The position numbers and the translations under genes are program-made. A DNA stretch of 64,000 nt from Eledone cirrhosa (Eukaryota), in NCBI GenBank assembly GCA_964016885.1, contig OZ024747.1:24738001-24802000 (forward strand), in the 5' to 3' direction. Each line of letters starts with the position of its first letter. The stretch's first letter is position 1. This document shows, piece after piece, positions 15,451 through 62,937 of the stretch. The notes beneath the pieces were generated by a model. The model did not search any database. It saw only the letters and a list, made by a program, of their open reading frames with translations, and was not told where the DNA came from.

Positions 15451-16259
15451 AATATACTTTACTAAATAACAGGAGTTGTTATTAAATCATTCCATTTGCC
15501 ATACTTCTGTGAACAAACTTTCTTGATATTGTTTACCATTTCTACATAGGGACACTTCTTAAGGGGTTTGCTTCACAAATACATAATTGTGGGTTCAGTC
15601 CTATTGTGTGGTACCTTGAGTAAGTGTCTTCTATTAGAGAAAAGTGTATAAGAACAAATAAAAGTAATTTTGTTACTGAACAATAAACTTTCTTACCATT
15701 TCTACAAAGAGGCAGGCATGGCTGTGGGGTTAAAGAGTTTTCTCTGCTGCTGTGTAGTTTAAATTTCAGTTGTATTCTGTGTCACCTTGGGAGAGTGTCT
15801 TTTCCTATAGAAGAATAAAAGAAACAAGTGAAATAATTATTATATTCAACATAACCAAAAAAATGGAAGAAAAAAAAAAGATAAAACAAGTCTAAATATT
15901 TAAATGGAACAAACTACCTGCATCAGTTATTAGCTGTCAGGGCACTGTATCCTTCAAAACTTCCATGCTTCCCAAAATTAGCCAACACTACACCTGATAT
16001 CCCCACTCCATACACATGAGTGCATGTATCTGTGTGTATATCATGACTGACTCATACACTGTTCACTTTCCTGACATTTTTACATTATTCTATATACTAT
16101 ACATGCACCTTTAATAAGTTGTAGTGCACCTGAGCACTGTACACAATGATTTTCATTATATTATATTAGATATTTCTCTTATTCGTTTTTTTTTATATTG
16201 ATTTACTTTCTACTACATATTAGACATGCACTATAACAATATAGCAATTATATGCACAA

Positions 16260-16605
16260 CGATATATACTACACCTATATCCAGCTATATTCACTAGAAC
16301 GTATAGGGATTATATATACATCTATATACACTAGAACTCTATAGAAATTATATATACACCTATATACAGTAGAACTCTATAGAAATTATATATACACCTA
16401 TACATACTCTAACTCTGTAGAAATAATATATGTAGCTATACACACTAGAGCATATAGAAATCCTATACAGCTGTATACACGAGAACCTATACAAATTATA
16501 TACACTAGACTACCTACACAACTATATACACTAGACTATATAGAAATCATATATACAGCTATATACACTATAGGAATATAAAAAGTATATAGAAATTATA
16601 TACAC
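16260..16605. repeat. Degenerate ~36-bp minisatellite
   Basis: Recurring TATATACACCTATATACACTAGAACTCTATAGAAAT-like units. Confidence 0.65.
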
Positions 16606-16778
16606 AATGTACTGAATAGCTTCTATCTGTAGTCAGAGTGATAATGATAATTCAATTTAATAATTTTGTGGTTTAAACCATGAAAAAACAAAAGATGAGA
16701 GGAGATAATTATAGATATCATCATTCAGCATCAGAATATTAAATTTTGAAATAACAACCCACTATTTGTTGATTGCAT

Positions 16779-16836
<58 letters not shown>

Positions 16837-16858
16837 TAACATCCTCTTTCTCTCTCTA

Positions 16859-16911
<53 letters not shown>

Positions 16912-17735
16912 TCCTCTCTCTCTCTCACACACACACACATACAAATCCTCTCTGTCTCTCTGTCTCTCTCACACACACACACATACACACATGCATATAT
17001 ACATTCTCAACCTCCCCCTCTTTCTTACACATACATATACATACACACACACACCCGCTCTCTCACACACACATAGACTCTCTCTTTCACATACATAGAC
17101 ACACATACACACACACTCTTTCTCCCTTTCTCTTTTCCACTCTTTGTTATAGACACACACACACTCACACACACACACACACACTCACACACTCATATAT
17201 ATATATGGACGTGTGCACTCATATTATGACACTTACTCTCTCTCTTTCTCTCTCTCTCCCTCTCTCCCTCTCTCCCTCTCTCCCTCTCTCCCTCTGTCTC
17301 TCTCTCTCTCTCTCTCTCTTTCATCAGTGAAACCACATGTTTTAACATAAGCAATGAATATGTACATGTAGCCCACACTAAAGTACTTGTTCACATGTCT
17401 GGATTGTTGCTATGGTTACAAACATAAACATCCTCGCTATCACCATCATTACATTATCATCACCATCATCACCAATAATACCACCACCATCACCATCCCC
17501 ATCATCATCACCATAACTACCATCAACATCATCAATACTATCACCATCATCACCATAACTACCATCAACATCATCAATACTATCACCATCATCACCACCA
17601 TCATCACAATCATGATCCCCAACAACTCCATCATCACCATCATAACCACCAATAGTACCATCACCACCACCACCACCATCATGACCACCATCATCCACCC
17701 CATCACTATCATCACCATCATCACCACCACCACCA

Positions 17736-20700
17736 TTAACACCTGTCTAAACACCTCAATTATACACAGCACCTCCTACACACATACTCAGCCACCCAGT
17801 TAACACCTGTCTAAACACCTCAATTATACACAGCACCTCCTACACACATACTCAGCCACCCAGTTAACACCTGTCTAAACACCTCAATTATACACATCAC
17901 CTCCTACACACATACCCAGCCACCCAGTTAACACCTGTCTAAACACCTCAATTATACACAGCACCTCCTACACACATACCCAGCCACCCAGTTAACACCT
18001 GTCTAAACACCTCAATTATACACAGCACCTCCTACACACATACTCAGCCACCCAGTTAACACCTGTCTAAACACCTCAATTATACACAGCACCTCCTACA
18101 CACATACTCAGCCACCCAGTTAACACCTGTCTAAACACCTCAATTATACACATCACCTCCTACACACATACCCAGCCACCCAGTTAACACCTGTCTAAAC
18201 ACCTCAATTATACACAGCACCTCCTACACACATACCCAGCCACCCAGTTAACACCTGTCTAAACACCTCAATTATACACAGCACCTCCTACACACATACC
18301 CAGCCACCCAGTTAACACCTGTCTAAACACCTCAATTATACACATCACCTCCTACACACATACCCAGCCACCCAGTTAACACCTGTCTAAACACCTCAAT
18401 TATACACAGCACCTCCTACACACATACTCAGCCACCCAGTTAACACCTGTCTAAACACCTCAATTATACACAGCACCTCCTACACACATACTCAGCCACC
18501 CAGTTAACACCTGTCTAAACACCTCAATTATACACATCACCTCCTACACACATACTCAGCCACCCAGTTAACACCTGTCTAAACACCTCAATTATACACA
18601 TCACCTCCTACACACATACTCAGCCACCCAGTTAACACCTGTCTAAACACCTCAATTATGCACAGCACCTCCTACACACATACCCAGCCACCCAGTTAAC
18701 ACCTGTCTAAACACCTCAATTATACACAGCACCTCCTACACACATACTCAGCCACCCAGTTAACACCTGTCTAAACACCTCAATTATACACAGCACCTCC
18801 TACACACATACTCAGCCACCCAGTTAACACCTGTCTAAACACCTCAATTATACACATCACCTCCTACACACATACCCAGCCACCCAGTTAACACCTGTCT
18901 AAACACCTCAATTATACACAGCACCTCCTACACACATACCCAGCCACCCAGTTAACACCTGTCTAAACACCTCAATTATACACAGCACCTCCTACACACA
19001 TACCCAGCCACCCAGTTAACACCTGTCTAAACACCTCAATTATACACATCACCTCCTACACACATACCCAGCCACCCAGTTAACACCTGTCTAAACACCT
19101 CAATTATACACAGCACCTCCTACACACATACTCAGCCACCCAGTTAACACCTGTCTAAACACCTCAATTATGCACAGCACCTCTTACACACATACCCAGC
19201 CACCCAGTTAACACCTGTCTAAACACCTCAATTATACACAGCACCTCCTACACATACTCAGCCACCCAGTTAACACCTGTCTAAACACCTCAATTATACA
19301 CAGCACCTCCTACACACATACCCAGCCACCCAGTTAACACCTGTCTAAACACCTCAATTATACACAGCACCTCCTACACACATACCCAGCCACCCAGTTA
19401 ACACCTGTCTAAACACCTCAATTATACACAGCACCTCCTACACACATACCCAGCCACCCAGTTAACACTTGTCTAAACATCTCAATTATACACAGCACCT
19501 CCTACACACATACCCAGCCACCCAGTTAACACCTGTCTAAACACCTCAATTATACACAGCACCTCCTACACACATACCCAGCCACCCAGTTAACACCTGT
19601 CTAAACACCTCAATTATACACAGCACCTCCTACACACATACCCAGCCACCCAGTTAACACCTGTCTAAACACCTCAATTATACACAGCACCTCCTACACA
19701 TACCCAGCCACCCAGTTAACACCTGTCTAAACACCTCAATTATACACAGCACCTCCTACACATATCCAGCCACCCAGTTAACACCTGTCTAAACACCTCA
19801 ATTATACACATCACCTCCTACACACATACTCAGCCACCCAGTTAACACCTGTCTAAACACCTCAATTATATACAGCACCTCCTACACACATACTCAGCCA
19901 CCCAGTTAACACCTGTCTAAACACCTCAATTATACACAGCACCTCCTACACATACCCAGCCACCCAGTTAACACCTGTCTAAACACCTCAATTATACACA
20001 GCACCTCCTACACATACCCAGCCACCCAGTTAACACCTGTCTAAACACCTCAATTATACACAGCACCTCCTACACATATCCAGCCACCCAGTTAACACCT
20101 GTCTAAACACCTCAATTATACACATCACCTCCTACACACATACTCAGCCACCCAGTTAACACCTGTCTAAACACCTCAATTATATACAGCACCTCCTACA
20201 CACATACTCAGCCACCCAGTTAACACCTGTCTAAACACCTCAATTATACACATCACCTCCTACACACATACTCAGCCACCCAGTTAACACCTGTCTAAAC
20301 ACCTCAATTATATACAGCACCTCCTACACACATACTCAGCCACCCAGTTAACACCTGTCTAAACACCTCAATTATACACATCACCTCCTACACACATACT
20401 CAACCACCCAGTTAACACCTGTCTAAACACCTCAATTATATACAGCACCTCCTACACACATACTCAGCCACCCAGTTAACACCTGTCTAAACACCTCAAT
20501 TATACACATCACCTCCTACACACATACCCAGCCACCCAGTTAACACTTGTCTAAACACCTCAATTATACACAGCACCTCCTACACACATACCCAGCCACC
20601 CAGTTAACACCTGTCTAAACACCTCAATTATACACAGCACCTCCTACACACATACCCAGCCACCCAGTTAACACCTGTCTAAACACCTCAATTATACACA

Positions 20701-21129
20701 GCACCTCCTACACATATCCAGCCACCCAGTTAACACCTGTCTAAACACCTCAATTATACACAGCACCTCCTACACATACCCAGCCACCCAGTTAACACCT
20801 GTCTAAACACCTCAATTATACACAGCACCTCCTACACATATCCAGCCACCCAGTTAACACCTGTCTAAACACCTCAATTATACACATCACCTCCTACACA
20901 CATACTCAGCCACCCAGTTAACACCTGTCTAAACACCTCAATTATATACAGCACCTCCTACACACATACTCAGCCACCCAGTTAACACCTGTCTAAACAC
21001 CTCAATTATACACATCACCTCCTACACACATACTCAGCCACCCAGTTAACACCTGTCTAAACACCTCAATTATATACAGCACCTCCTACACACATACTCA
21101 GCCACCCAGTTAACACCTGTCTAAACACC
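17736..21129. repeat. 64-bp tandem satellite (~53 copies)
   Basis: Unit TTAACACCTGTCTAAACACCTCAATTATACACAGCACCTCCTACACACATAC(T/C)CAGCCACCCAG. Period 64, with some 62-bp variants. Confidence 0.97.
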
Positions 21130-21210
21130 GTGATTATATACAACACCTACATACACCTGTTGACACCTTTCTAAACAACAGTCATATACAACATTCACAT
21201 GCACCCACCC

Positions 21211-24200
21211 TTTTAACACCTGCCTAAACACCCACATACAAACACACTGTCACCCTTTTAACACCTGCCTAAACACCCACATACAAACACACTGTCACCC
21301 TTTTAACACCTGCCTAAACACCCACATACAAACACACTGTCACCCTTTTAACACCTGCCTAAACACCCACATACAAACACACTGTCACCCTTTTAACACC
21401 TGCCTAAACACCCACATACAAACACACTGTCACCCTTTTAACACCTGCCTAAACACCCACATACAAACACACTGTCACCTTTTTAACACCTGCCTAAACA
21501 CCCACATACAAACACACTGTCGCCCTTTTAACACCTGCCTAAACACCCACATACAAACACACTGTCACCCTTTTAACACCTGCCTAAACACCCACATACA
21601 AACACACTGTCACCCTTTTAACACCTGCCTAAACACCCACATACAAACACACTGTCACCCTTTTAACACCTGCCTAAACACCCACATACAAACACACTGT
21701 CACCCTTTTAACACCTGCCTAAACACCCACATACAAACACACTGTCGCCCTTTTAACACCTTCCTAAACACCCACATACAAACACACTGTCACCCTTTTA
21801 ACACCTGCCTAAACACCCACATACAAACACACTGTCACCCTTTTAACACCTGCCTAAACACCCACATACAAACACACTGTCACCTTTTTAACACCTGCCT
21901 AAACACCCACATACAAACACACTGTCACCCTTTTAACACCTTCCTAAACACCCACATACAAACACACTGTCACCCTTTTAACACCTGCCTAAACACCCAC
22001 ATACAAACACACTGTCACCCTTTTAACACCTGCCTAAACACCCACATACAAACACACTGTCACCCTTTTAACACCTGCCTAAACACCCACATACAAACAC
22101 ACTGTCACCCTTTTAACACCTGCCTAAACACCCACATACAAACACACTGTCACCTTTTTAACACCTGCCTAAACACCCACATACAAACACACTGTCACCC
22201 TTTTAACACCTGCCTAAACACCCACATACAAACACACTGTCACCCTTTTAACACCTGCCTAAACACCCACATACAAACACACTGTCACCCTTTTAACACC
22301 TGCCTAAACACCCACATACAAACACACTGTCACCCTTTTAACACCTGCCTAAACACCCACATACAAACACACTGTCACCTTTTTAACACCTGCCTAAACA
22401 CCCACATACAAACACACTGTCACCCTTTTAACACCTGCCTAAACACCCACATACAAACACACTGTCACCCTTTTAACACCTGCCTAAACACCCACATACA
22501 AACACACTGTCACCCTTTTAACACCTGCCTAAACACCCACATACAAACACACTGTCACCCTTTTAACACCTGCCTAAACACCCACATACAAACACACTGT
22601 CACCTTTTTAACACCTGCCTAAACACCCACATACAAACACACTGTCACCCTTTTAACACCTGCCTAAACACCCACATACAAACACACTGTCACCCTTTTA
22701 ACACCTGCCTAAACACCCACATACAAACACACTGTCACCCTTTTAACACCTGCCTAAACACCCACATACAAACACACTGTCACCTTTTTAACACCTGCCT
22801 AAACACCCACATACAAACACACTGTCGCCCTTTTAACACCTGCCTAAACACCCACATACAAACACACTGTCACCCTTTTAACACCTGCCTAAACACCCAC
22901 ATACAAACATACTGTCACCCTTTTAACACCTGCCTAAACACCCACATACAAACACACTGTCACCCTTTTAACACCTGCCTAAACACCCACATACAAACAC
23001 ACTGTCACCCTTTTAACACCTGCCTAAACACCCACATACAAACACACTGTCACCCTTTTAACACCTGCCTAAACACCCACATACAAACACACTGTCACCT
23101 TTTTAACACCTGCCTAAACACCCACATACAAACACACTGTCACCCTTTTAACACCTGCCTAAACACCCACATACAAACACACTGTCACCCTTTTAACACC
23201 TGCCTAAACACCCACATACAAACACACTGTCACCCTTTTAACACCTGCCTAAACACCCACATACAAACACACTGTCACCTTTTTAACACCTGCCTAAACA
23301 CCCACATACAAACACACTGTCACCCTTTTAACACCTGCCTAAACACCCACATACAAACAGACTGTCACCCTTTTAACACCTGCCTAAACACCCACATACA
23401 AACACACTGTCACCCTTTTAACACCTGCCTAAACACCCACATACAAACACACTGTCACCTTTTTAACACCTGCCTAAACACCCACATACAAACACACTGT
23501 CACCCTTTTAACACCTGCCTAAACACCCACATACAAACACACTGTCACCCTTTTAACACCTGCCTAAACACCCACATACAAACACACTGTCACCCTTTTA
23601 ACACCTGCCTAAACACCCACATACAAACACACTGTCACCTTTTTAACACCTGCCTAAACACCCACATACAAACACACTGTCGCCCTTTTAACACCTGCCT
23701 AAACACCCACATACAAACACACTGTCACCCTTTTAACACCTGCCTAAACACCCACATACAAACACACTGTCGCCCTTTTAACACCTGCCTAAACACCCAC
23801 ATACAAACACACTGTCACCTTTTTAACACCTGCCTAAACACCCACATACAAACACACTGTCACCCTTTTAACACCTTCCTAAACACCCACATACAAACAC
23901 ACTGTCACCCTTTTAACACCTGCCTAAACACCCACATACAAACACACTGTCACCCTTTTAACACCTGCCTAAACACCCACATACAAACACACTGTCGCCC
24001 TTTTAACACCTGCCTAAACACCCACATACAAACACACTGTCACCCTTTTAACACCTTCCTAAACACCCACATACAAACACACTGTCACCCTTTTAACACC
24101 TGCCTAAACACCCACATACAAACACACTGTCACCCTTTTAACACCTTCCTAAACACCCACATACAAACACACTGTCACCCTTTTAACACCTGCCTAAACA

Positions 24201-24658
24201 CCCACATACAAACACACTGTCACCCTTTTAACACCTTCCTAAACACCCACATACAAACACACTGTCACCCTTTTAACACCTGCCTAAACACCCACATACA
24301 AACACACTGTCACCCTTTTAACACCTTCCTAAACACCCACATACAAACACACTGTCACCCTTTTAACACCTGCCTAAACACCCACATACAAACACACTGT
24401 CACCCTTTTAACACCTGCCTAAACACCCACATACAAACACACTGTCACCCTTTTAACACCTGCCTAAACACCCACATACAAACACACTGTCACCCTTTTA
24501 ACACCTGCCTAAACACCCACATACAAACACACTCTGTCACCCTATTAACACCTGCCTAAACACCCACATACAAACACACTCTGTCACCCTATTAACACCT
24601 GCCTAAACACCCACATACAAACACACTCTGTCACCCTATTAACACCTGCCTAAACACC
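21211..24658. repeat. 45-bp tandem satellite (~76 copies)
   Basis: Unit TTTTAACACCTGCCTAAACACCCACATACAAACACACTGTCACCC. Period 45; the last three units are 47 bp. Confidence 0.97.
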
Positions 24659-25465
24659 TCAATTATATACAATACACCTTTGACAATACACTTCTCTTCC
24701 TAGTGTTAATAAATAACCACTTCTTAAAAACACCTGCCTTCCACACCTGCCTAAGTACCTCAATTATATATATAATACACCTCTGACAACATACTTCTCA
24801 TTCCAGTGTTAATTAATTGCTTTAACACACCTGTTGATGATACCTAATTAAAATACCTTCTTCTTTTTATTTCTCAATATATTGCTACCATTAATTGCAG
24901 TAACATCCATCTCCTCATCACTATCTCCACTACTATCATCTCCATCATCACCAGCAGCAGCAGCAGCACTAACAATGCTACCACCACCACTACCATCATT
25001 ATTATCAGCATCACTTTCATCAGTACCACCATCAACAGCATTATCACTGTCATCATTATCACCACCACTGCCATCATCATCCTCCATTATCATCATCATC
25101 ATCATCTTCATAATCATCATTATCACTACCATCAGCAGCATTATTCATCATCGCCATCATCATCATCATTATCATCATCCTTATCACCACCACTGCCATC
25201 ATCATCATTATCATCATCATTATCACCACCAGTGCCATCTCCATATCAACGTCATGCTCATCATCATCATTCTCCTCGAGTAAATATTTGATCTCAGTTA
25301 CAACAGTAGGAAATGCAGTAGTATGTACTATCACTGACAATTGTATAGAATCTCATAATGACAAACTATATTTTAGTTAATTAATGAAGAATTCGCAAGG
25401 ATTTACTAAGATTATTAATTATTTCATTATTAAAATAATATTTCTAACATCACTTAAGAAAAAAC

Positions 25466-25647
25466 TCTTTTATAAAATTGTGTTGGAAGATTTTAATTTA
25501 AATAGGAACCCTTGTTTCAAAGAATTAGAGCTTACTTTGGAGTATGTTGGTATCAAAAGGGTCACTTTCAGTTCTATTAAGCAAGGCTTAAATTTTAAAA
25601 GGGTTCCTGTTTAAATTAAAATCTTCCTGCATAATTTTATATAAGAA
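25466..25647. repeat. Inverted repeat, probably a MITE remnant
   Basis: GGAAGATTTTAATTTAAATAGGAACCCT pairs with AGGGTTCCTGTTTAAATTAAAATCTTCC. Confidence 0.55.
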
Positions 25648-48829: not shown

Positions 48830-51605
48830 TCAATGAAATCAACGATGCTGGGTTTAAAATCACATCTGATCTCAACATCCTGGACCGGACCGAACCTCTG
48901 GACCCTATTTCTCCCCACTTTACCCTGAAGGATCACAAATCCAATTTTCCGAACAACCCCTCTATTCGGCTTATTAACCCTACGAAGTCCGATTTAGGTA
49001 GACTTAGTAAAACGATTCTTGATAGAATTATACCTGAAATTAGAAGTTTGGCCCCTCTCGCACTGTGGAACAACTCTTTCGCGGTGATTGATTGGTTCAA
49101 CGGCATATGTAACAAGGAACATTGCCGTTTTATCCAATTCGACATCAACAATTACTACTCCTCCATCACTTTACCACTTCTCCTTAGAGCTATCAATTTC
49201 GGTAAAACACTCACAGTGGTTAAGGATTTCGAAGTTGATGTCATCCTCAATGCCCGAAAGTCGGTGATTAATTTCGACGACTCTATTTGGATAAAAAAAT
49301 CCAATAGTACCCCCATTCGACGTGAGTATGGGCGCCAGTGACTCTGCGGAGGTTACTGATCTTATTGGCCTTTTCCTTCTTTTCTCTATCAAGGACGAAT
49401 TCCCCAACGCGGGCGGTGGTTTATACCGTGACGATGGTCTTTTGACCATGACTAAGTGCGGACCTCGTGCTTGCGACAGGTTCAGAAAAGAACTCACAGC
49501 CTTCTTTAAAGGCTTCAACCTCTCTATACAGGTTGAGGCCAATCTCTCGGTCGTTAATTACCTCGACGTTACCCTCAATTTATTGAATGGGTTGTATTAC
49601 CCGTATAGAAAGCCGAATGATACGCTTAATTACATAAGTAAGCATTCCAACCATCCTGCCAGCATAACCAAGAACCTGGTAAGAAACGTTTCGTTGAGGC
49701 TTTCCCGTCTTTCCACCTACGAGCGTATTTTCAACGACCATTCCACTTATTACAATGAAGCTCTGGCTCGAAGTGGATTTGTCGATAAGGTAGCATATAC
49801 AGAGTACGAAAATAGACCTAGAAGAAATAGATCCCGTCGCATTTGTTGGTATAACCCACCATATAATATGGAGGTGGCCACACCATTAGCTAAGATCTTT
49901 CTTTCCATTATCACGAAGCATTTTCCCCCTACACATAAATATAGTAAAATTTTAAATAGAAATACTATTAAAATTTCTTACTCTACGACTCCTAACCTTG
50001 CACATAACATCACAGCTTCAAATTTAGCTAAACTACCTAGCCGTAGGAATACGTGCAACCCTGTAGTTAGTACCAACTGTAATTGTAGGAATCGGGCTGA
50101 TTGCCCCCTATCCGGGAAATGCCTCTCTAGTAACATTGTCTACAAATGTAAGGTTGTAACACCCACGTAGGGTTGTAACACCCTATGTAGGCCCTACATA
50201 GGGTTAACCGCCAATAGTTTCAAGCAGCGTCTTTACATGCATACCCATTCTTTTCGATACCCTCTAAGAAGGAATATGACGTCACTTTCAGCTTATATCT
50301 GGAGTCTAAAAGACAACCACACCCAATATAAGTTACACTGGGAGATCCTAGCTAGGGCTAGATCGTATAACGGAAATAAAAGACCATGTGACCTCTGCGC
50401 CGCTGAGGCCTTGGAAATACTCTACGCCGCAAACCACATCTTAAACAAAAAATCTGAGGCAATTTCGGCTTGTAAACATAAATTGCACAAAACTTTCCTG
50501 TATTACAGCCCCACGTTATACCCTAACGGATAGTACGATCTATACGTGGATATTTTACGTCTTGATGTGGGAGCTAAGTATATGTTTTGTTTATTCCTTT
50601 ACTTATTTTTATAGGTAAGTATATACTACCCGTATGTTTTGTGAAGGTACGTATACCTTCTCGTACGTATATTTGATTGCTATGACGTATAATTTTATAT
50701 ATTCTGGTACATAGGGTTTGGCTATGTGTATACGGGAGTTTTTGCGTCTGTGTGATTATGTAGGTTCGTACGTATGGTGGGTGTGTGTATATGTGTACTT
50801 CTTGTTTTAGTTGACTTACGTCGTGTATTTATATGTAGGTATGTGTGTGCGCTTGTTATATACGTATTTATTTATTTATATACGTTTATATAATTATTTA
50901 TTTATTTGTATACACGCATACACACACACACATATTTATATGTGCGTGGTTTTGTATACCTATGGTAAGGTTTTGCGTATGCTTGTGTATGTACGTATCT
51001 GTTTGCGTGTATCTATTTATTTATTACTTCTGTATTGTATTTATTTACTTTGTTCTTAACTCTGTAGCGGAGATTCATTTGGTCTCCTAGTTAGAATTTT
51101 AGTCTACGACTTCTGCTATACCATTTACGTGGTTTTGTCTTTGCGTGCTATTGTTCTCCACGCTCCACATATGACCTATTATCTTCGTTTTTTCGTTCAT
51201 TGCCAGAGAACGTCTCTATGAACCACCTAAGAGAACATTAGTCTACGACCTCTTTTATACCATAAACGTGGTTCTGTCTTTGCGCGTAATTGTTTTTCAC
51301 CACTCCTATTAATGACGTATTATTCGTTTTTTCCCGTTCTTCGCCAGCGAACGTTTCCACGAACCAAAGTATCGTCTTCCTGTCTTCCTCCGGTTGCAAG
51401 GTTTTTTTAAATATCCAGTTCTGCGTTTACAGATTGACTTTGTTAGTTTCAGAAGATCCCGTTAAGGGTGAAAGCAGCGATTCTTTGCTTAAACTTTAAT
51501 CTGTTATTTTAATAAATATTTGCTCTACGGTTCTTATATATTTGATATATATTTATCCTTATCGAGCCCACTTTGGATTTTAGTCTTCAAATTTATTATT
51601 ATTAC
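48830..51605 (+). mobile_element. 5'-truncated Naiad-like PLE (RT + GIY-YIG), frameshifted
   Basis: [32 protein letters not shown]; linker CNCRNRADCPLSGKC (CxCx5C); IVYKC...YIGLT; CDLC...CKH. Both ends lie in (TA)n. Confidence 0.88.
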
Positions 51606-53993: not shown

Positions 53994-54692
53994 GGAGGTG
54001 AGTTTTATTGTAGTACAATAAAGCAATGCAGATATCGGATAAGAAGCACTCTACAGTTTGTAGGACTGGAGTATACATAATATATAAGATCAAAAGATGG
54101 TTAAAAGAGTTCCATGTATTATTTTATGCGCATTTCAAAAACAAATATCATCATGCAATAACATTTGTGTTTTCATCAGATAAAATAGGAAGACATGATA
54201 TGAAGGTTAAAAACACTTGTGGATAGTGCAGTTTTAAATTAACATATGAAAAGTAGTTTTAGATTGATGTGTGATATTGGGGTGGGGTGAAAGGATGAAA
54301 AAGAGGAGATGAGCGTAAAAAGTGGAGGGGGAGGAGTATAATGAGGAAGGATGTGATAGGAGGAGAGATGGGTGATAGAGAGAGAGAGATAGCTTTTATA
54401 ACTGAGAAAAATATATTGTTTTACATAGAGAGGTTGAAAAACCGTTGGAAGATAATGAATAAATTAAAAGAATTTGAAAATTAACGAAGAGAAAAATAAT
54501 GTAAAGTTAAGGTTTGTATATTGAAGGATTTAATAATATGTGCGATGAAAAGAAATTGTTAATATGTATTAAGAATAATATTTAAGGGTTTAATAATATG
54601 TCCGATGGAAAGAAAATGTTAATATGTATTAAGAATAATATTTAAGGGTTTAATAATATGTGCGATGGAAAGAAAATGTTGATATGTATTAA
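53990..54692 (-). mobile_element. Inverted pLTR of the Naiad-like PLE at 54693
   Basis: Reverse complement of 61050-61790 plus an extension that also appears at 62660-62747. Contains a 60-bp tandem repeat and a hammerhead at 54117-54187. Confidence 0.85.
54117..54187 (-). ncRNA. Hammerhead ribozyme (family C)
   Basis: Reverse complement of 61682-61752 with an altered stem I. Confidence 0.7.
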
Positions 54693-57040
54693 ACCTGGTA
54701 AATCTGAATTCACCAAACTTCTAATTGAAAAAAACTGACTCCTTTTTAAGAAGACTTAGATGGATAGCTTATTTCTATGACCAGCGCCTAAAACGGAACT
54801 TCTATACCAAGGAACCTAACTTCCTCGATCATCTATTTAATTCTAGAAGAAATCCTCCTTCCAACAAAAATCTAGTGCAATTCGAGGAAGAGTTAACAAA
54901 TATAAAAAATATTAAACTCAAGAGTTACCCTTACAAAGGACAAGAGCACCTTGTAAATCTCAAGAACACAATTTCGAACCTAAATACCTCAAAAAATGTT
55001 TTAGTCCACTCTGACAAAACCAATAATTTATATGGTATTTCCAAGGATAATTATAACAACCTTATCCTAAAGGAACTTAGGAAAAAATATCGTAAAACCA
55101 ACCATGATAATTTAGAATCCATAAACTTTGAAGCCTCTGAGATTATGTCAAAACTTGGCATCGGAAAAAAGACCGAACCATTCCTTCCAAGAACTCCGAG
55201 GATAAATCTCAAGGATCACAAAAACAATTTTCGCACTGAACTACCTGTTAGATTAATCGCCCCCTCTAAATCAGATCTGGGGGTTGTTCGTAAAGCCATC
55301 TTGGATAGAATTATCCCACAGGTTCGTTCTAATTGCTCTTCTTTGAACTTAAATTTATGGTTTGGTACTTCTGAAGTGATTGGCTGGTTCAACAAATTGA
55401 ATAAGAAAAACAAACTAAAATTTGTTCAATTTGATATTGCCAGCTACTATTCTTCTATTTCGCCCTCACTTCTCAACAATGCTCTTTCGCATTTAAATAT
55501 TCTGACATCACCACAGATGAACATCACATCATTCTCACCGCACGTAAAACCATCCTCTAACAACTTCGACATCACAATGGGAGCATCCGATTCATCCCAA
55601 TTGACATATTTAATTGGTATCTTTATTTTGAACTCTTTGAGTCGGAAAATTCCTCAACTTCGCGGTGGAATTTATCGGGACGATGGACTCTTTACTATCT
55701 TAAATTGCAACATAGTTAACCTTAATATTATCAAGAACAATATACGTAATCTCTTTAACCAACATAACCTAAAAATTGAATTTGATAACAGCATCAAACT
55801 AGCTAATTTTTGGATGTATCTCTTAATCTTGACACTGGCCTATATTACCCTTACCATAAAAACAATGAGAACCTAAATTATGTTAATTTTAAATCTAACC
55901 ACCCTACTAATATTAAGAATGCTATAGTTAGTAATATTGGAAAAAGAATATCTAACCTATCTTCTAATAAAACATCTTTGATGCTAACACCAATTACTAT
56001 AATAACGCGCTTTCTAAAGCCGGCTATCCTGATAAAATCAAATATAATAAAGAAACAAATTCTAGAAGATCTTACAGTAGAATAATTAATCATGATCATT
56101 CCAATAACTTTAATAAAAGACCTAGATACAAAAACATAATCTGGTATAATGCTCCTTTCTCCATCTCTATTAATAATAATATTCCTAAATTATTCTTTAG
56201 TGCCTTAAATAAATGCTTCCCTCCCTCACATATCTATAGTAAAATATTTAACAAACACACTATAAAATTTTCCTATTCAACATCCTCCAACATTTCCAAC
56301 ATTATCTCTAAACACAACAATAAAATACTAAATACTAAATCTCTTCCTTCCAACACTGAATATCATAATAATAGTAATAGTACTCCCGACGTCATTGTAA
56401 ACTCTAGGCTAATTTCTGTAAACCCAAATACAACGTCAAACACAACTTCGCTAAATGTTCTTAATCCCATTCTAAATCAAGAAACTATTATTCCTATCGC
56501 AAATAACTTCTCCAATCCAATTCCTTCTATAGATAACACTAGGTCACTCGTTAATAATCTCTCTAATCGCAATTGCAATTGCCCTGCTAAAAATAAATGT
56601 CCTCTCAACAACCATTGTCTTGATAAAAACTTAATCTACGAATGTAAAGTTATAACTGACACCAATTCCTTCACCTATTTTGGCTCCACTTCCACCTCCT
56701 TTAAAGTTCGTCTTTATAATCATCATTCGTCTTTTAAATACCAACTTAAAAGAACCAACACGGCTCTCTCAGAACTCATATGGTCCTTGAAAGACAAAAA
56801 TATTAAATATAACATCTCTTGGAAAAAGGTTTCTTCTGCTTCTTTATACTTGAACAGTTCTCTATCCAAGACTTGCAATCTCTGTCTAAATGAAAAATGT
56901 ACCATTATATCTAATTTAGATTCTATAATAAATAGACGCACTGACTTGTTTTCTATCTGCTTGCATAAATTCCACAGAACATTCCATAAATATACAGCTA
57001 ATATCCTAAACTTTATCAATTCAGAATCCTTTTCTCAAAG
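54693..57040 (+). pseudogene. Naiad-like PLE ORF (RT + GIY-YIG), frameshifted
   Basis: SDKTNN (DKT), LKDHK, QFDIASYY, MGASDS, GIYRDDGL, CNCPAKNKCPLNNHC, LIYECK...YFGST, CNLC...CLH. Confidence 0.88.
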
Positions 57041-57270
57041 GCACATATATATATATATATACTTCTTTAAAAATATACCCATCTTTCTACCTTATTTCAA
57101 AGTTATTTATTATACTTTATATAATACTTGTTACTCATTCTATATCACTCCTATTTATCACTTCCCTTTCTTCCTTTTCCTTTTCTTTTCTTTTTCTTTT
57201 AATTTCTAACCCCTAATCTGAACCTTTTCTCGCTGTGCCTAACATAGAAACAATTATTACACAATACAAT

Positions 57271-58367
57271 ACCAGATAGAAAAATGCGTACAGCAAAAAA
57301 AAGTAATATTGTTGGAATATAAACCTTTACAAATACAGGACAAGAAACTAAAATAAAACTTTAAAAGAATAGGACAAGGAACTAAGATAAAACTTTAAAA
57401 GAATAGGACAAGAAACTAAGATAAAACTTTAAAGAATTGGACAAGAAATAAAAAAATTTTACAATAATATTAGTGGCAAAATTTTTATTGGTAAAAAATC
57501 GAGTTCCACATTCATAGGCTCTGGGTTCCACATTCAGAGGTCGTCGTCAGACCGGGGGGATCATTTGATCCTGGTTTGAACACCAATTGGGCCATAACTA
57601 TACCCATATTTCATCATTCGGCGACACGCCTCATGTGTCATGCATAATGTGAATGGACCCATGGGCCCATGAGCACAGATCTTGAGCAGCAGCGGACGGT
57701 CTTGTCGTCCCGCTCATCCTTGATCTTGACCAACCCGTCCATCTTCTCCTTGCATCTTGTCCTTGAGTTCAAGTCCGGCAGTCCAGATGAATGCGTGCCA
57801 CAGCTTTCTGGTACAGGAAGGGGGAGCAGGAGGACTGGAGGGATGACGGGACAGAGGGAGGGAGGACCGGTGGTTGAGGGAGGTGCCGTAGTCGGTGGTC
57901 AGAGTCGACATCTTGTCCCGGTCGTCTTCTCCATCTTCGTCTGGTGTTGCGGGACCAGAAGTGCATTCTTGGAGGAGACCTGCAGCTGCATCGGCCAATT
58001 TTTCTTGCAATGGTCATTCTGACGGAGCAGAACTGCTCAGCCAACCAACCCCAACCAGAACCAACCGCTCAGGGGCAACGCACAATGAGAGCATGACAAT
58101 TATTATGCACTAATCAAGAAGATACTGGGGCATAGCAGAGGAAACGAATAAAAAAATGTTGCCACTAATATTATTGTAAAATATTTTTATTTCTTGTCCA
58201 ATTCTTTAAAGTTTTATCTTAGTTTCTTGTCCTATTCTTTTAAAGTTTTATCTTAGTTCCTTGTCCTATTCTGTTAAAGTTTTATTTTAGTTTCTTGTCC
58301 TGTATTTGTAAAGGTTTATATTCCAACAATATTACTTTTTTTTGCTGTACGCATTTTTCTATCTGGT
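57271..58367. repeat. ~220-bp inverted repeats flanking a GC-rich ~660-bp core
   Basis: 57271-57489 is the reverse complement of 58147-58367. Each arm has internal GGACAAGAAACTAAGATAAAACTTTAAA subrepeats. Confidence 0.9.
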
Positions 58368-58640
58368 CTACTATTTTTTAAGGCAATGCAAGCAACAACT
58401 ATCTAATAATTAAATGATCATAGTGAATTACTGACAAGTGATTGACATTTTAAAGTTCTTTTGAGTATAATTGCAATCTAGTTGAGGCAACTGGCTTAAT
58501 GACAAAGCTAGTAAATCATGAATGCATTTGAGATGATTAGTGCATAATAGTGAATTGGTGAAACTTGTGCATTTCAATGGTGTTACAACAATAGATTTAA
58601 GTTATATAGTAGTAATACTTTATCATTTTAACTTTTTAGA

Positions 58641-59000
58641 ATGGACAAAAACCCATGCAAAGAAATGACTTTGACTGCAGTGATTCTCTCCAATTTACTT
58701 ACAAAGCAAAACGTGGTCAAATACCTTATCATCTCTGATAAAATGCCCATTGAATCACTGAAAATCGGATGCATGGAATTCCTCATAAAATGCACCTATG
58801 AATCGGAAGCCATCACATATATCAATGGATATAGGGAGTTGTTCACACTGGAAGACCATCACTTCATTTGTGACTTCATCAGTTATCTCCACGATTATCT
58901 CAGACACCCAATGCCATTGATGAGAGGTGATCCAATGTGTGAACATGTAACTAATCTTATAGAAGTTGTTATCGACAACCTGGCTTTTAGTGACATTTGA
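58641..59000 (+). CDS. Orphan 119-aa ORF of unknown function
   Basis: Non-repetitive, globular-looking composition. The ATG directly follows an acceptor-like TTTTTAG-A. Converges on the SGNH gene. Confidence 0.45.
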   Translation: MDKNPCKEMTLTAVILSNLLTKQNVVKYLIISDKMPIESLKIGCMEFLIKCTYESEAITYINGYRELFTLEDHHFICDFISYLHDYLRHPMPLMRGDPMCEHVTNLIEVVIDNLAFSDI

Positions 59001-59179
59001 CTGATTGACTGATAATGATGTATTTTTAAAAAGTATGTGTACATTCTTGTTACTATTTTAAGGCAATGCAAGCAACAACTATTTAATAAAATTCAAATTT
59101 AAAAATGACCATTGTGCATTACTAGTATGATGACATTTTATTAAGTCACAAAATTAGTCAGTCAGCCATAGAACAAGGA

Positions 59180-59975
59180 TCAGGTGGCAAAAACATTGGC
59201 AAAAATTTGTGTCAATTTTAGATTTCCAACATTGTTCAAATTAATCATATTTGGTTTGAAGTCAGATATGTCAAATTTTGACCAATTTTCAATGTTGTGA
59301 AGATTGGGCAAGTTCAATTTTTGAATCATTTCTTTCATGCAGTAATTAAACTTTTCCAAACGAGAATTTCTCTTGCCCAAGTCATTTTTATTTTCAATTA
59401 CACTTTGTGGACGTGGAATGACACCACTGTAGAAAATGGGTGTACAGTGGTGCTTTTCCGCTATTTTCTGTAGCCTTGCAAAGAGACTCTTCCCCTGTTT
59501 TTCCGGTTTTGTGCCTCGAATGGGCACTTTGTCCTTAATTTACAAATAAATTATTAATAAAAAATACTTGGGCAAAAATTATTGTATTACTTTTCACAGC
59601 TTTGTAGTGCCAACGGTGCGACGAGGATTCAGATCATTAGAGCCGACATGAACCACCAATACTTTCACAAAAGGACAACAGATAACAATATTGGCGATTA
59701 ACATTACCTGGCCCTGACGGGCCCCAGGTATACAAAATATCTAAGTATTTTTGTTGGTATGATAAGTAAATACATTTGAATTAACATTTTTATACCTTCT
59801 GGTCATTCGATTTCGCCACATTTCTAATTATGGATTTGTAAAAACTGGCATGAATGTGAATTTGATCAGTCCAATTGCCCGATTTTAGTGAAAAGTTTTG
59901 ATTCGAAATGGAAATACTCCATTTCCGTGCCATGGAAAAAATGAATAAGCCGATCAAAAAGCCGCGAAACATCAT
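59180..59975 (-). pseudogene. Three-exon SGNH/GDSL hydrolase-fold gene (exons 59975-59796, 59740-59591, 59533-59180) with one in-frame TGA
   Basis: Two phase-0 GT-AG introns (55 and 57 nt) join KSIIRNV (block I-like), FCIPGAR (block II), VLVVHVGSNDL (block III), YSGVIPRP and NMINLNNVGNLKL (block V-like). TGA at 59596-59594. Confidence 0.72.
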
Positions 59976-60884
59976 TTTTAATTAAGCGAAATTAGTGGAT
60001 GCAAATCTCAGAAAATATTGTACACTATTCGCACCTATCGCACTATTCGCACCTATCGGTACAAAAAATCGCACGACTGTTAATAATACTAGAAGTGCAA
60101 ACTATCTGTTGAATACCTGGTATATGAAGAGCAACCGATACGATCGGTCGGCGATCGGTCTTAATGAAGAATGAAGTGAAATTTTGGTCTGGTTGTTGTC
60201 ATCGGTGTTTCGCAGAGATGCCGGCACGAACAAAGGTGTCAGTGACACAAAGTTGTCCGCTTGAACAAAGGTGTCGGTCCGACAAAGGTGTCAGTCAGAC
60301 AGACAGTCAGACAGTGCCACAGTCGGTGCGACAAAGCGATCGATGCGATTTAAAAAAATTTAACTCATATGTTTACCTATATTTTCGCAAACTATTGATA
60401 GATTGGTACAAAAAATAGCTTTGATAATAAACATAAATTTTTAACGAAGTATTTAAAAAGCATTTTAGCAGTGAAAAGTGAAGTAATGTTTCACACTGAC
60501 GCAAGTAGGGCCGTTCAGAAATGACGTAGTCAATTAGGAGGAGGGGATTCGGCGATTTGACTACATTTGACTAACGTAATCACAATCACAAGAGTTCCGC
60601 CGAAAAAAATTCGTCATTTCTGGATTACCTCCCCTGGCGTCACGCTTACTACTCACTCACTTGAACGCAAGATTTATCAGCAAACTTTGATTATAAACTT
60701 TTTCCCGCTGGACCAAATTTCTAGATTTTTAAGCCAAAAGATGCGTAATGATCTACTGTTCATGATCATATAAGTTTTATCTCAGTTAAATAAAGTAGAG
60801 CCGCGCTGTACTGTCGTAAACAGACGATTGCCAACGAAAACACGACCACAACAATATTACTAAACGGACTACCGTCCGTTTAGG

Positions 60885-61790
60885 ATATTCTTACTTTATA
60901 TCACCTTCAAAAAATCCTTCGTAAACATAAACATTTTTTTTTGACGTTAGATTATTCATCCTCAATTCATTATTTTTTTCTCACTTTCATCTAACTTATT
61001 CATGCTCATCTCACAATATATCCTTACTTACATTACTTTTGTTTTTTTAATAATACATATCAACATTTTCTTTCTATCGCACATATTATTAAACCCTTAA
61101 ATATTATTCTTAATACATATTAACTTTTTCTTTCCATCGCACATATTATTAAACCCTTAAATATTATTCTTAATACATATTAACATTTTCTTTTCATCGC
61201 ACATATTATTAAACCCTTCAATATTATTCTTAATACATATTAATATTTTCTTTCCATCGCACATATTATTAAACCCTTAAATATTATTCTTAATACATAT
61301 TAACAATTTCTTTTCATCGCACATATTATTAAACCCTTCAATATACAAACCTTAACTTTACATTATTTTTCTCTTCGTTAATTTTCAAATTCTTTTAATT
61401 TATACATTATCTTCCAACGGTTTTTCAACCTCTCTATGTAAAACAATATATTTTTCTCAGTTATAAAAGCTATCTCTCTCTATATATCACCCATCTCTCC
61501 TCCCATCTCATCCTTCCTCATTATACTCCTCCCCCTCCACATTTTACTCTCATCTCCTCCTCTTTTTCATCCTTTCACCCCCCCCCCCCCAATATCACAC
61601 ATCAATCTAAAACTACTTTTCATATGTTGATTTAAAACTGCACTATCCACAAGTGTTTTTAACCTTCATATCATGTCTTCCTATTTTATCTGATGAAAAC
61701 ACAAATGTTATTGCATGATGATATTTGTTTTTGAAATGCGCATAATAAAATACATGGAACTCTTTTAACCATCTTTTGATCTTATATATT
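60885..61790 (+). mobile_element. 3' UTR/pLTR of the Naiad-like PLE
   Basis: Pyrimidine-rich UTR, about five copies of a 60-bp repeat (61050-61340), a hammerhead, and an end in (TA)n. Inverted homologue of 54085-54692. Confidence 0.8.
61682..61752 (+). ncRNA. Type I hammerhead ribozyme (family C)
   Basis: Stem I TATTTTAT/ATAAAATA; CTGATGA; stem II ACAAATGTTAT/ATGATATTTGT; GAAA; palindromic ATGCGCAT; AUA triplet. Confidence 0.85.
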
Positions 61791-61979
61791 ATATATGTAT
61801 ATATGTATATGTATATATATGTATATATATATATGTATATGTATATATATATATATGTATATATATGTATATATATGTATATATATATATGTATATATAT
61901 GTATATATATGTATATATATGTATATATATATGTATATGTATATATATGTATATATATATATGTATATATATATGTATA

Positions 61980-62034
<55 letters not shown>

Positions 62035-62075
62035 GTATATATATATATGTATATATATGTATATATATGTATATA

Positions 62076-62747
62076 TAATATAAGATCAAAAGATGGTTAA
62101 AGGAGTTCCATATATTTTATTATGCGCATTTCAAAAACAAACATCATCAAACAATAATATTTGTGTTTTCATCAGATAAAACAGGAGAACATGATATGAA
62201 GGCTTTTTTTCATCCTCTCCACCCCCCCCCCTCCCTAAATAAAATATTTTTTCCTCGCACATATCCTCCCTTCGTTAATTTTCAAAATTTTTAATTTATA
62301 CAGTATCTTCCAACGGTTTTCAACCCCTCTATATAAAATATATCTCCTCTCAGTTATAAAAACTATCTCTTTCTCTCTATCACCCATCTCTCCCTCTCAT
62401 CTCCTTCCCTTTTCATCCTTTTCTATCCCCCCCCCCTCTCTAAATAAAATATTTTTCCCAATATCACACATCAATCTAAAACCACTTTTCATATGTTGAT
62501 TTAAAACTGCACTATCAACAAGTGTTTTTTAGCCTTCATATCATGTTCTCCTGTTTTATCTGATGAAAACACAAATATTATTGTTTGATGATGTTTGTTT
62601 TTGAAATGCGCATAATAAAATATATGGAACTCCTTTAACCATCTTTTGATCTTATATTATGCATACTCCAGTCCCACAAACTGTAGAGTGCTTCTTATCC
62701 GATATCTGCATTGCTTTATTGTACTACAATAAAACTCACCTCCTACA
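62076..62747. mobile_element. Non-coding head-to-head pLTR pair (family C) with two hammerheads
   Basis: 62076-62203 is the reverse complement of 62532-62660. Hammerheads at 62113-62183 (-) and 62552-62622 (+). (TA)n flanks. Confidence 0.85.
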
Positions 62748-62937
62748 TATGTATATATATATATATGTATATATATGTATATATATATATATGTATATAT
62801 ATATATGTATATATATGTATATATATGTATATGTATATATATATGTATATATATATGTATATATATCTATATGTATATATATATATGTATATATATGTAT
62901 ATATATATATGTATATATATATATATGTATATATATG

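Follow-up and report, generated by a model that had tools for sequence, protein, structure and literature searches.

The window analysed here is a 64,000-nucleotide stretch of Eledone cirrhosa DNA (contig OZ024747.1, positions 24,738,001 to 24,802,000 of the forward strand), in which the 3' untranslated region (UTR) of a Penelope-like element (PLE) is interrupted by a block of 3,614 bp on the minus strand. A distinct block had been marked at this place by the original prediction (57257 to 60884), between the open reading frame (ORF) of the PLE and its hammerhead-bearing 3' repeat; such a block is present, and its exact ends are window positions 57272 and 60885. The features of the locus are the following.

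54725 to 57271, plus strand: host PLE, frameshifted reverse transcriptase (RT)/endonuclease-type ORF and first part of the 3' UTR (type assigned by eye, no Pfam match)
57272 to 60885, minus strand: non-autonomous HLE2 element, 5'-TC...CTGG-3', in an A/T site without target duplication
57272 to 57486, minus strand: terminal arm, with 34-bp tandem repeats (57319-57469), a subterminal repeat (57302-57314), the GCATTTTTC motif and the CTGG 3' end
57487 to 58151, no strand: foldback loop, 665 bp, GC-rich (52%), unrelated to the loops of the sister lineages
58152 to 58366, plus strand: inner arm, an inverted copy of the element's last 215 bp, ending in CTGG and followed by T and a motif common to four lineages
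58632 to 59000, plus strand: orphan ORF of 122 codons from one stop to the next, pointing towards the SGNH gene (convergent) and flanked by direct repeats of about 85 bp
59180 to 59833, minus strand: SGNH-hydrolase-type gene, broken (remnant of an exon up to 59796; exon 59740-59591, with TGA inside; exon 59533-59180)
59820 to 59834, minus strand: junction of a deletion of about 9 kb with short microhomology; Rep-helicase-UCH and the predicted NADAR are gone and the leader is joined in frame to the SGNH catalytic Ser
59834 to 60848, minus strand: CpG-rich predicted promoter/UTR and first Rep-helicase codons (ATG at 59975), with 91-98% identity to the 5' part in copies that encode Rep
60849 to 60861, minus strand: 13-bp subterminal repeat behind the hairpin, with its inverted partner at 57302-57314
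60860 to 60885, minus strand: 5' end, TC and directly behind it a hairpin of 10 bp whose loop is GGTA (z -4.5; present in 317 exact copies; the sister lineage has a compensatory change)
60886 to 61790, plus strand: host PLE, remaining 3' UTR/pseudo-long terminal repeat (pLTR) with a hammerhead motif at 61685-61749

Comparison with empty sites places the insertion between A and T of the PLE 3' UTR, with zero duplication. The block is missing from 19/19 other loci of this UTR; the empty junction is matched within 4 edits at 18 of them, the remaining locus being short of 5 nt. An earlier break of the UTR had been proposed at about 57234, which does not hold: the tip at 57234-57258, which resembles a short interspersed nuclear element (SINE) and is similar to seven SINE ends within the window, is a fixed part of the 3' UTR in other copies of the host PLE family. 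The window's own genome was queried with the block, which gave 818 candidate loci; 40 were scored and the best 30 (29 besides the window) were kept, with copies 95-98% identical to the block. The flanks of other copies, proposed earlier as a check for the PLE ORF or pLTR, are unrelated DNA at 29/29 other fetched loci, and among 137 fetched stretches PLE flank stands next to 0/109 5' ends and 0/95 3' ends (0/204 in total). As predicted, the block is without perfect microsatellites.

Read on its own strand, the element runs TCCT...ATCTGG. The terminal hairpin that had been predicted is found at 60860-60883, whereas no strong local hairpin exists at the 3' end (terminal 74 nt fold z -0.77), where the inverted partner of the subterminal repeat lies 30 nt ahead of the terminal CTGG. 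Counted in the genome as exact 26-mers, the hairpin end occurs 317 times, the arm end, of which each element has two, 802 times and the inner-arm junction 396 times. Sixty loci were chosen by the hairpin, 44 of which have the 3' end within the fetched stretch; A precedes TC in 60/60 and T follows the 3' end in 44/44. Recurrent internal-deletion classes measure about 3.6, 2.3, 2.0 and 1.5 kb, with one further class of 3.9 kb. Every class found at at least two loci keeps the first 250-275 bp or so and the whole foldback (terminal arm, loop and inner arm), and the 1.5-kb derivatives have shed all genes and kept 1.1 kb of foldback. Truncations gather where the inner arm meets the loop (L055, L062, L256, L262, L278, L293, L027-L029), a possible breakage hot spot at the inverted repeat.

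The autonomous partner was recognised in one fetched locus, where a Rep ORF starts from the same hairpin. This Rep stretch, used as a query, gave 24 loci with an identity of 95-100%, two with 85-86% and four with 64-69%. The transposase of the partner contains DUF6570 (E 1.9e-14), Helitron_like_N (7.7e-24), PIF1 (4.1e-26) and UCH (7.9e-13) in Pfam searches; DUF6570 is present in three lineages (E 2.7e-13 to 4.8e-18), no Exo_endo_phos match is found in the transposases, and UCH comes after the helicase. In one copy both ends are present, 12.6 kb apart, and the order of the partner is 5' end, DUF6570-Helitron_like_N-PIF1-UCH transposase, predicted NADAR-SGNH gene, orphan ORF and foldback. It is practically certain that the block derives by deletion from an HLE2 Helitron and is non-autonomous, which bears out the other option of the original prediction, the nesting of a DNA element (for example a Helentron); nothing in the evidence points to the virus that had been named beside it. 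The N-terminus of the transposase (L120:1307-2275) contains 'LLIIGCVELNPGP', which we take to resemble the 2A-like peptides of non-long-terminal-repeat (non-LTR) elements.

The CpG-rich, promoter-like part of the block had been seen correctly (observed/expected CpG of 1.41 in 59834-60885 against 0.49 for the window), and its identity is the 5' region of the transposase. The convergent SGNH-type gene with three exons also stands, with predicted GT-AG introns of 55 and 57 nt, although its window copy is broken rather than intact: it has lost its start and the G-D of block I, the TGA lies in exon 2, and block V reads NMIN, where most copies have DMIH. GDS is intact in 5 copies, and blocks I (GDS), II (G), III (GxND) and V (DxxH) are all readable in longer copies. 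The last SGNH exon of another copy matches Lipase_GDSL_3 at E 0.0032, short of the Pfam cut-off; for this exon, sequence search gave no longer relative and no meaningful PDB match. Upstream, three successive frames match the NADAR profile PF08719 in order (4-67, 82-116 and 118-162) with E-values of 0.0032, 0.075 and 0.0095, each short of the Pfam cut-off, and the last of them continues in frame into SGNH block I. Four contig runs were compared with the NADAR region of the partner and no joints were seen. In the 3.6-kb class the leader is fused in frame to SGNH (window 59975-59180, minus strand) and the later motifs are intact in about 26 copies; a chimeric protein could be made.

The orphan ORF of 119 aa, counted from Met, is present as predicted; the direct repeats around it (58369-58452 and 59051-59140) are 76% identical. 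It has no Pfam match under E 0.03 and no relative in three sequence searches, and BTB/BACK-like atlas scores of 0.75-0.78 give a weak lead. The ORFs of the GC-rich core have no profile match, so no protein is supported there. The SGNH, predicted NADAR and orphan genes presumably travel with the Helitron as passengers and would not be required in cis. A platyfish Helitron is known to carry SGNH cargo (PMC4021074), and for NADAR there are reports from Gypsy and Tx1 retroelements (PMC12477816); here and below, statements on published elements refer to the parts of the cited papers that were covered. A literature search by title and abstract start gave no paper linking NADAR to Helitrons.

The GC-rich core between inverted repeats had likewise been noticed (arms 57272-57486 and 58152-58366, around a 665-bp core at 52% GC), though not recognised as a duplicated terminus, which is the most unusual feature of the element. 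The arms are 96.5% identical over a 230-nt match. By protein search, related lineages are found in the same genome: a sister lineage with 88% identity in the Rep piece, lineage C with about 67% and lineage B with 58%. The four lineages form one clade in a quick tree (Shimodaira-Hasegawa-like approximate likelihood ratio test, SH-aLRT, 99), for which 63/84 rows were kept, the 21 left out being near-duplicates or rows in which little of Rep was covered. All four begin with TC and a hairpin from base 3, with the GGTA loop in three of them and a compensatory pair change in the sister, and all four finish with GCATTTTTC..CTRG ahead of T. The inverted copy of the 3' end is present in 2/2 fetched copies of the sister lineage, 7/8 of lineage B and 3/4 of lineage C. 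The loops of the lineages are unrelated, save one 19-nt match between B and C, while a short motif just outside the inner arm is common to them. We infer a role for this foldback, which appears to be both undescribed and conserved in the clade; the literature searched, to which Repbase, Dfam and subscription journals did not belong, holds no account of it.

The HLE2 copies of lineage B, of about 12.9 kb and about 99% identical, look very young, and open Rep-PIF1-UCH frames of 2,134-2,245 aa are present in 8/8 of them; these near-identical copies with open frames of about 2,230 aa are a natural candidate for an assay. Their positions are as follows.

Lineage B loci L156-L171: C3:72.98M, C5:5.37M, C14:27.66M, C2:253.9M, C1:200.49M, C13:18.83M, C3:255.63M, C27:17.63M

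The loop of the sister lineage (L137:5471-6085) contains a 205-aa frame with a Cys/His pattern which by eye is like the PHD finger of ORF1 of long interspersed nuclear elements; there is no such Pfam match.

The two arms evidently exchange sequence, judging by the distribution of their substitutions. Of the aligned arm sites, 16 distinguish the window family from its sister and 0 distinguish one arm from the other, and across 85 copies that have both arms the majority base is the same for the two arms in every column. In these 85 copies the same substitution is found in both arms of one copy in 31 events; permutation gives a mean of 8.3 and a maximum of 18, and 0/1000 permutations reach 31. 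Outside the tandem repeats 17 such events are found (7.7 expected by permutation), and a first run with 47 copies had given 13 against 4.3. The loop is flipped in 1/57 copies, which indicates recombination between the arms.

The polarity of copying is suggested by a composite that arose by self-insertion into the A/T just after the HUH motif of Rep. It has two TC-hairpin ends and one 3' end, and the same junction is found at two loci (L069:5252 and L124:4884); element sequence follows 0/97 3' ends. Such a composite is expected if TC is where copying begins and whichever 3' end comes first is where it stops. Self-insertion and a first-3'-end model were put forward for FoHelis (PMC5148889), and in Helraiser the origin lies at the TC end, the terminator is the 3' hairpin and the active form is double-stranded circles (PMC5876387).

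The explanation that fits best as a whole, and which we hold to be very probable, is that an HLE2 derivative lies in the PLE UTR, likely copied there in trans, with the foldback as a proposed stop signal. The Rep-helicase of the family, acting in trans, likely copied the block into the UTR. Rep would nick at the TC-hairpin end and the strand would be peeled off; once the fork had passed the 3' end, the terminal 215 nt could anneal to the inner copy and so give a long stem whose loop measures about 665 nt. This stem would act as the stop signal in place of the short hairpin at the 3' end of canonical Helitrons and present CTGG for the second cut, and mismatch repair or conversion within the stem may keep the arms alike. 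That the foldback is functional and terminal in this sense is somewhat favoured. Self-priming of the second strand from the terminal CTGG is possible, since this CTGG would pair with template continuing into the element, and is put forward only tentatively. If it occurs, the second strand needed by Helitron intermediates would be supplied without primase, and the loop would serve as a slot in which captured DNA can be exchanged. The clade bears on the way in which HLE2 Helitrons begin and end their copying and on the conversion of any displaced Helitron strand to double-stranded DNA (two models are offered in PMC5876387). A self-homogenising 3' foldback offers a direct deletion test. Annotators that pair terminal inverted repeats (TIRs) would mis-cut these elements or label the foldback a miniature inverted-repeat transposable element (MITE).

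Several observations weigh against this explanation. The polarity rests on one composite event. The longest Rep frame in the examined copies of the window family is 1,174 aa and none is unbroken (the frame of the sister lineage is 1,904 aa). A downstream inverted repeat ending in CTRR is found in 0/80 distant metagenome relatives, which are about 30% identical and many of whose contigs end early; the three relatives that extend into the UCH part stop 212-1,412 bp beyond it. The inner-arm motif is missing in 5/44 complete-ended copies, in four single copies by deletions with different breakpoints and in one full-length copy by alignment, and the inner arm is lost in 1/8 copies of lineage B; the inner arm may therefore be dispensable. 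Most arm substitutions (363) are single-arm, and the both-arm variants could partly be due to assembly polishing across arms; moreover, the copies do not count as independent.

The same derivative could alternatively carry the foldback as a neutral relic of one ancestral inverted self-insertion, the arms being kept alike by ordinary gene conversion. Self-insertion in opposite orientation was proposed for FoHelis (PMC5148889), a T stands behind the inner CTRR, as it would at an insertion junction, and the copies without an inner arm, together with the one flipped loop, fit this explanation. The foldback is, however, kept in four lineages down to about 58% Rep identity while the loops were replaced, the motif just outside the inner arm is conserved, and the gene-free 1.5-kb derivatives still hold their 1.1 kb of it. 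A relic is the less likely account, though one to be taken seriously.

Rather unlikely is the opposite polarity, in which the foldback end would be the origin (a doubled left end), the subterminal repeat and hairpin would be the terminator and the transposase ORF would be reversed; this explanation partly overlaps the others. On the plus strand the right end consists of the subterminal repeat and then the hairpin, that is, the canonical HLE2 terminator, which counts against the polarity preferred here, and reversed ORFs are reported for Helentron-Da-40 (PMC4067079), Helitron-2_CRe as well as Helitron-1_DR (PMC3627910). Truncations occur on both sides of the element and leave the polarity unsettled. 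The TC, the CTRR and the A/T target, on the other hand, all fit Helitron1 polarity along the ORF, and in the composite two hairpin ends stand against a single foldback end.

A cut-and-paste MITE (CCAG...CTGG, with 215-bp TIRs) nested at the Helitron end is very improbable: 57272-58366 alone does resemble a TIR element, but there is no target duplication, element body always follows beyond the inner arm (20/20 loci chosen by the inner junction run on into it, and 396 exact inner-junction copies stand against the 802 arm ends), and in four lineages the arm belongs to the Helitron itself as its CTRR end. No solo copy with a target duplication on both sides is among the loci, which were not chosen to find such copies. 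Carriage by the PLE as a Terminon-like composite, suggested by the position between the PLE ORF and the hammerhead-bearing repeat at this single locus, can be discarded with hardly any reserve, because the block is absent from the 19 other PLE loci and none of the 204 ends lies in PLE flank; it also has Helitron ends and a partner of its own. The virus reading was rejected as well.

As to the surroundings, the hammerhead of the host PLE had been predicted correctly, in that our own pattern scan finds the type I consensus motif at 61685-61749. The Rfam scan has no hammerhead match and nothing at gathering level in the window; within 54000-62800 it gives just sub-threshold and microsatellite-driven matches. 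Two more hammerhead motifs in inverted arrangement (62555, plus strand; 62180, minus strand) lie in 62130-62700, in another pLTR pair. A second Penelope-like RT/endonuclease remnant is found at 49295-50533 (plus strand) with one in-frame stop at 50168, for which a selenocysteine reading was dropped, the codon being TAG. At 16000-25500, about 9 kb with a GC skew near -0.8 are probably a tandem array.

Among known systems, the family agrees with the Helitron superfamily in having Rep (HUH) and PIF1 in a partner with the same ends and no target duplication, and with HLE2 in having DUF6570, an HLE2 marker according to HELIANO (PMC11417382), and short asymmetric 13-bp subterminal inverted repeats. 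The quick tree, which includes no named HLE2 reference, places it among DUF6570-bearing relatives and far from one HLE1 row. Its Rep is about 25-38% identical to other Helitron_like_N loci of the genome. Near-identical Helitron_like_N loci stand at a spacing of about 100-300 kb on the small contigs C19, C20, C27 and C16, which suggests large tandem units with another Helitron. Canonical HLE2 elements insert at T/T and have an end with repeat and hairpin (PMC11417382, PMC3627910, PMC4067079), whereas this family inserts at A/T and has the hairpin on the 5' side of the ORF, not the 3' side. Compared by description, HLE2 subgroups c and d (mostly lungfish and axolotl; PMC11417382) share DUF6570 and the C-terminal UCH on the Rep-helicase, UCH being placed in these subgroups by HELIANO. 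Helentron/HINE/DINE-1 and the SGNH-carrying platyfish Helitron (PMC4067079, PMC4021074) share subterminal inverted repeats, many deletion derivatives and an SGNH passenger; the present family differs from them in having no APE endonuclease, in its A/T instead of T/T target, in the hairpin on the 5' side of the ORF and in that SGNH is predicted to be fused behind a NADAR domain. With canonical Helitron1 (Helraiser) it has in common 5'-TC, CTRR-3', the A/T target and the lack of duplication; unlike Helitron1, it has DUF6570 and no short 3' hairpin. A few automatic HLE2 assignments (5 and 21) are given for cephalopods in the HELIANO supplement (PMC11417382), the Octopus repeat paper (PMC13282606) gives Helitron counts only, and the parts of PMC13085455, PMC11934779 and PMC12273014 covered hold nothing on this end layout.

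The layout with a 5' stem-loop is described for FoHeli3-5 and proto-Helentron (PMC11417382, PMC5148889, PMC4067079). HLE2-reverse/FoHeli3-5 of Fusarium oxysporum (PMC5148889, PMC11417382) have an HLE2-type Rep with DUF6570, a 5' hairpin ahead of the left short inverted repeat and none at the 3' end, and a right repeat 20-40 bp from the end, matching the 30 nt found here. The name HLE2-reverse is used in one paper of the literature searched. They differ in their ends, TGCCT...CTCCTGT with no established target, against TC...CTRG in A/T, although TCCT...ATCTGG of the block is similar to theirs without being identical; compared by description, the present family also differs in occurring in an animal genome and in having UCH and the inverted duplication of 135-220 bp of the 3' end. 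Proto-Helentron of Phytophthora infestans (PMC4067079, PMC11417382) shares an HLE2 transposase without endonuclease, a 5' stem-loop, a 3' CTAG and A/T insertion with no duplication. Unlike the present family, it has a 5' TT instead of TC, a left 12-nt repeat 3.6 kb inside instead of directly behind the hairpin, SET/TIR cargo, and no long foldback in its description as covered; according to HELIANO, none of 404 sampled genomes contained an element like it (PMC11417382). In the clade described here an HLE2 transposase is combined with Helitron1 end motifs, in a layout otherwise reported, in the literature covered, from Fusarium and Phytophthora only. The family works like FoHeli3-5 and proto-Helentron, departs from both in its end motifs and adds the foldback to their layout.

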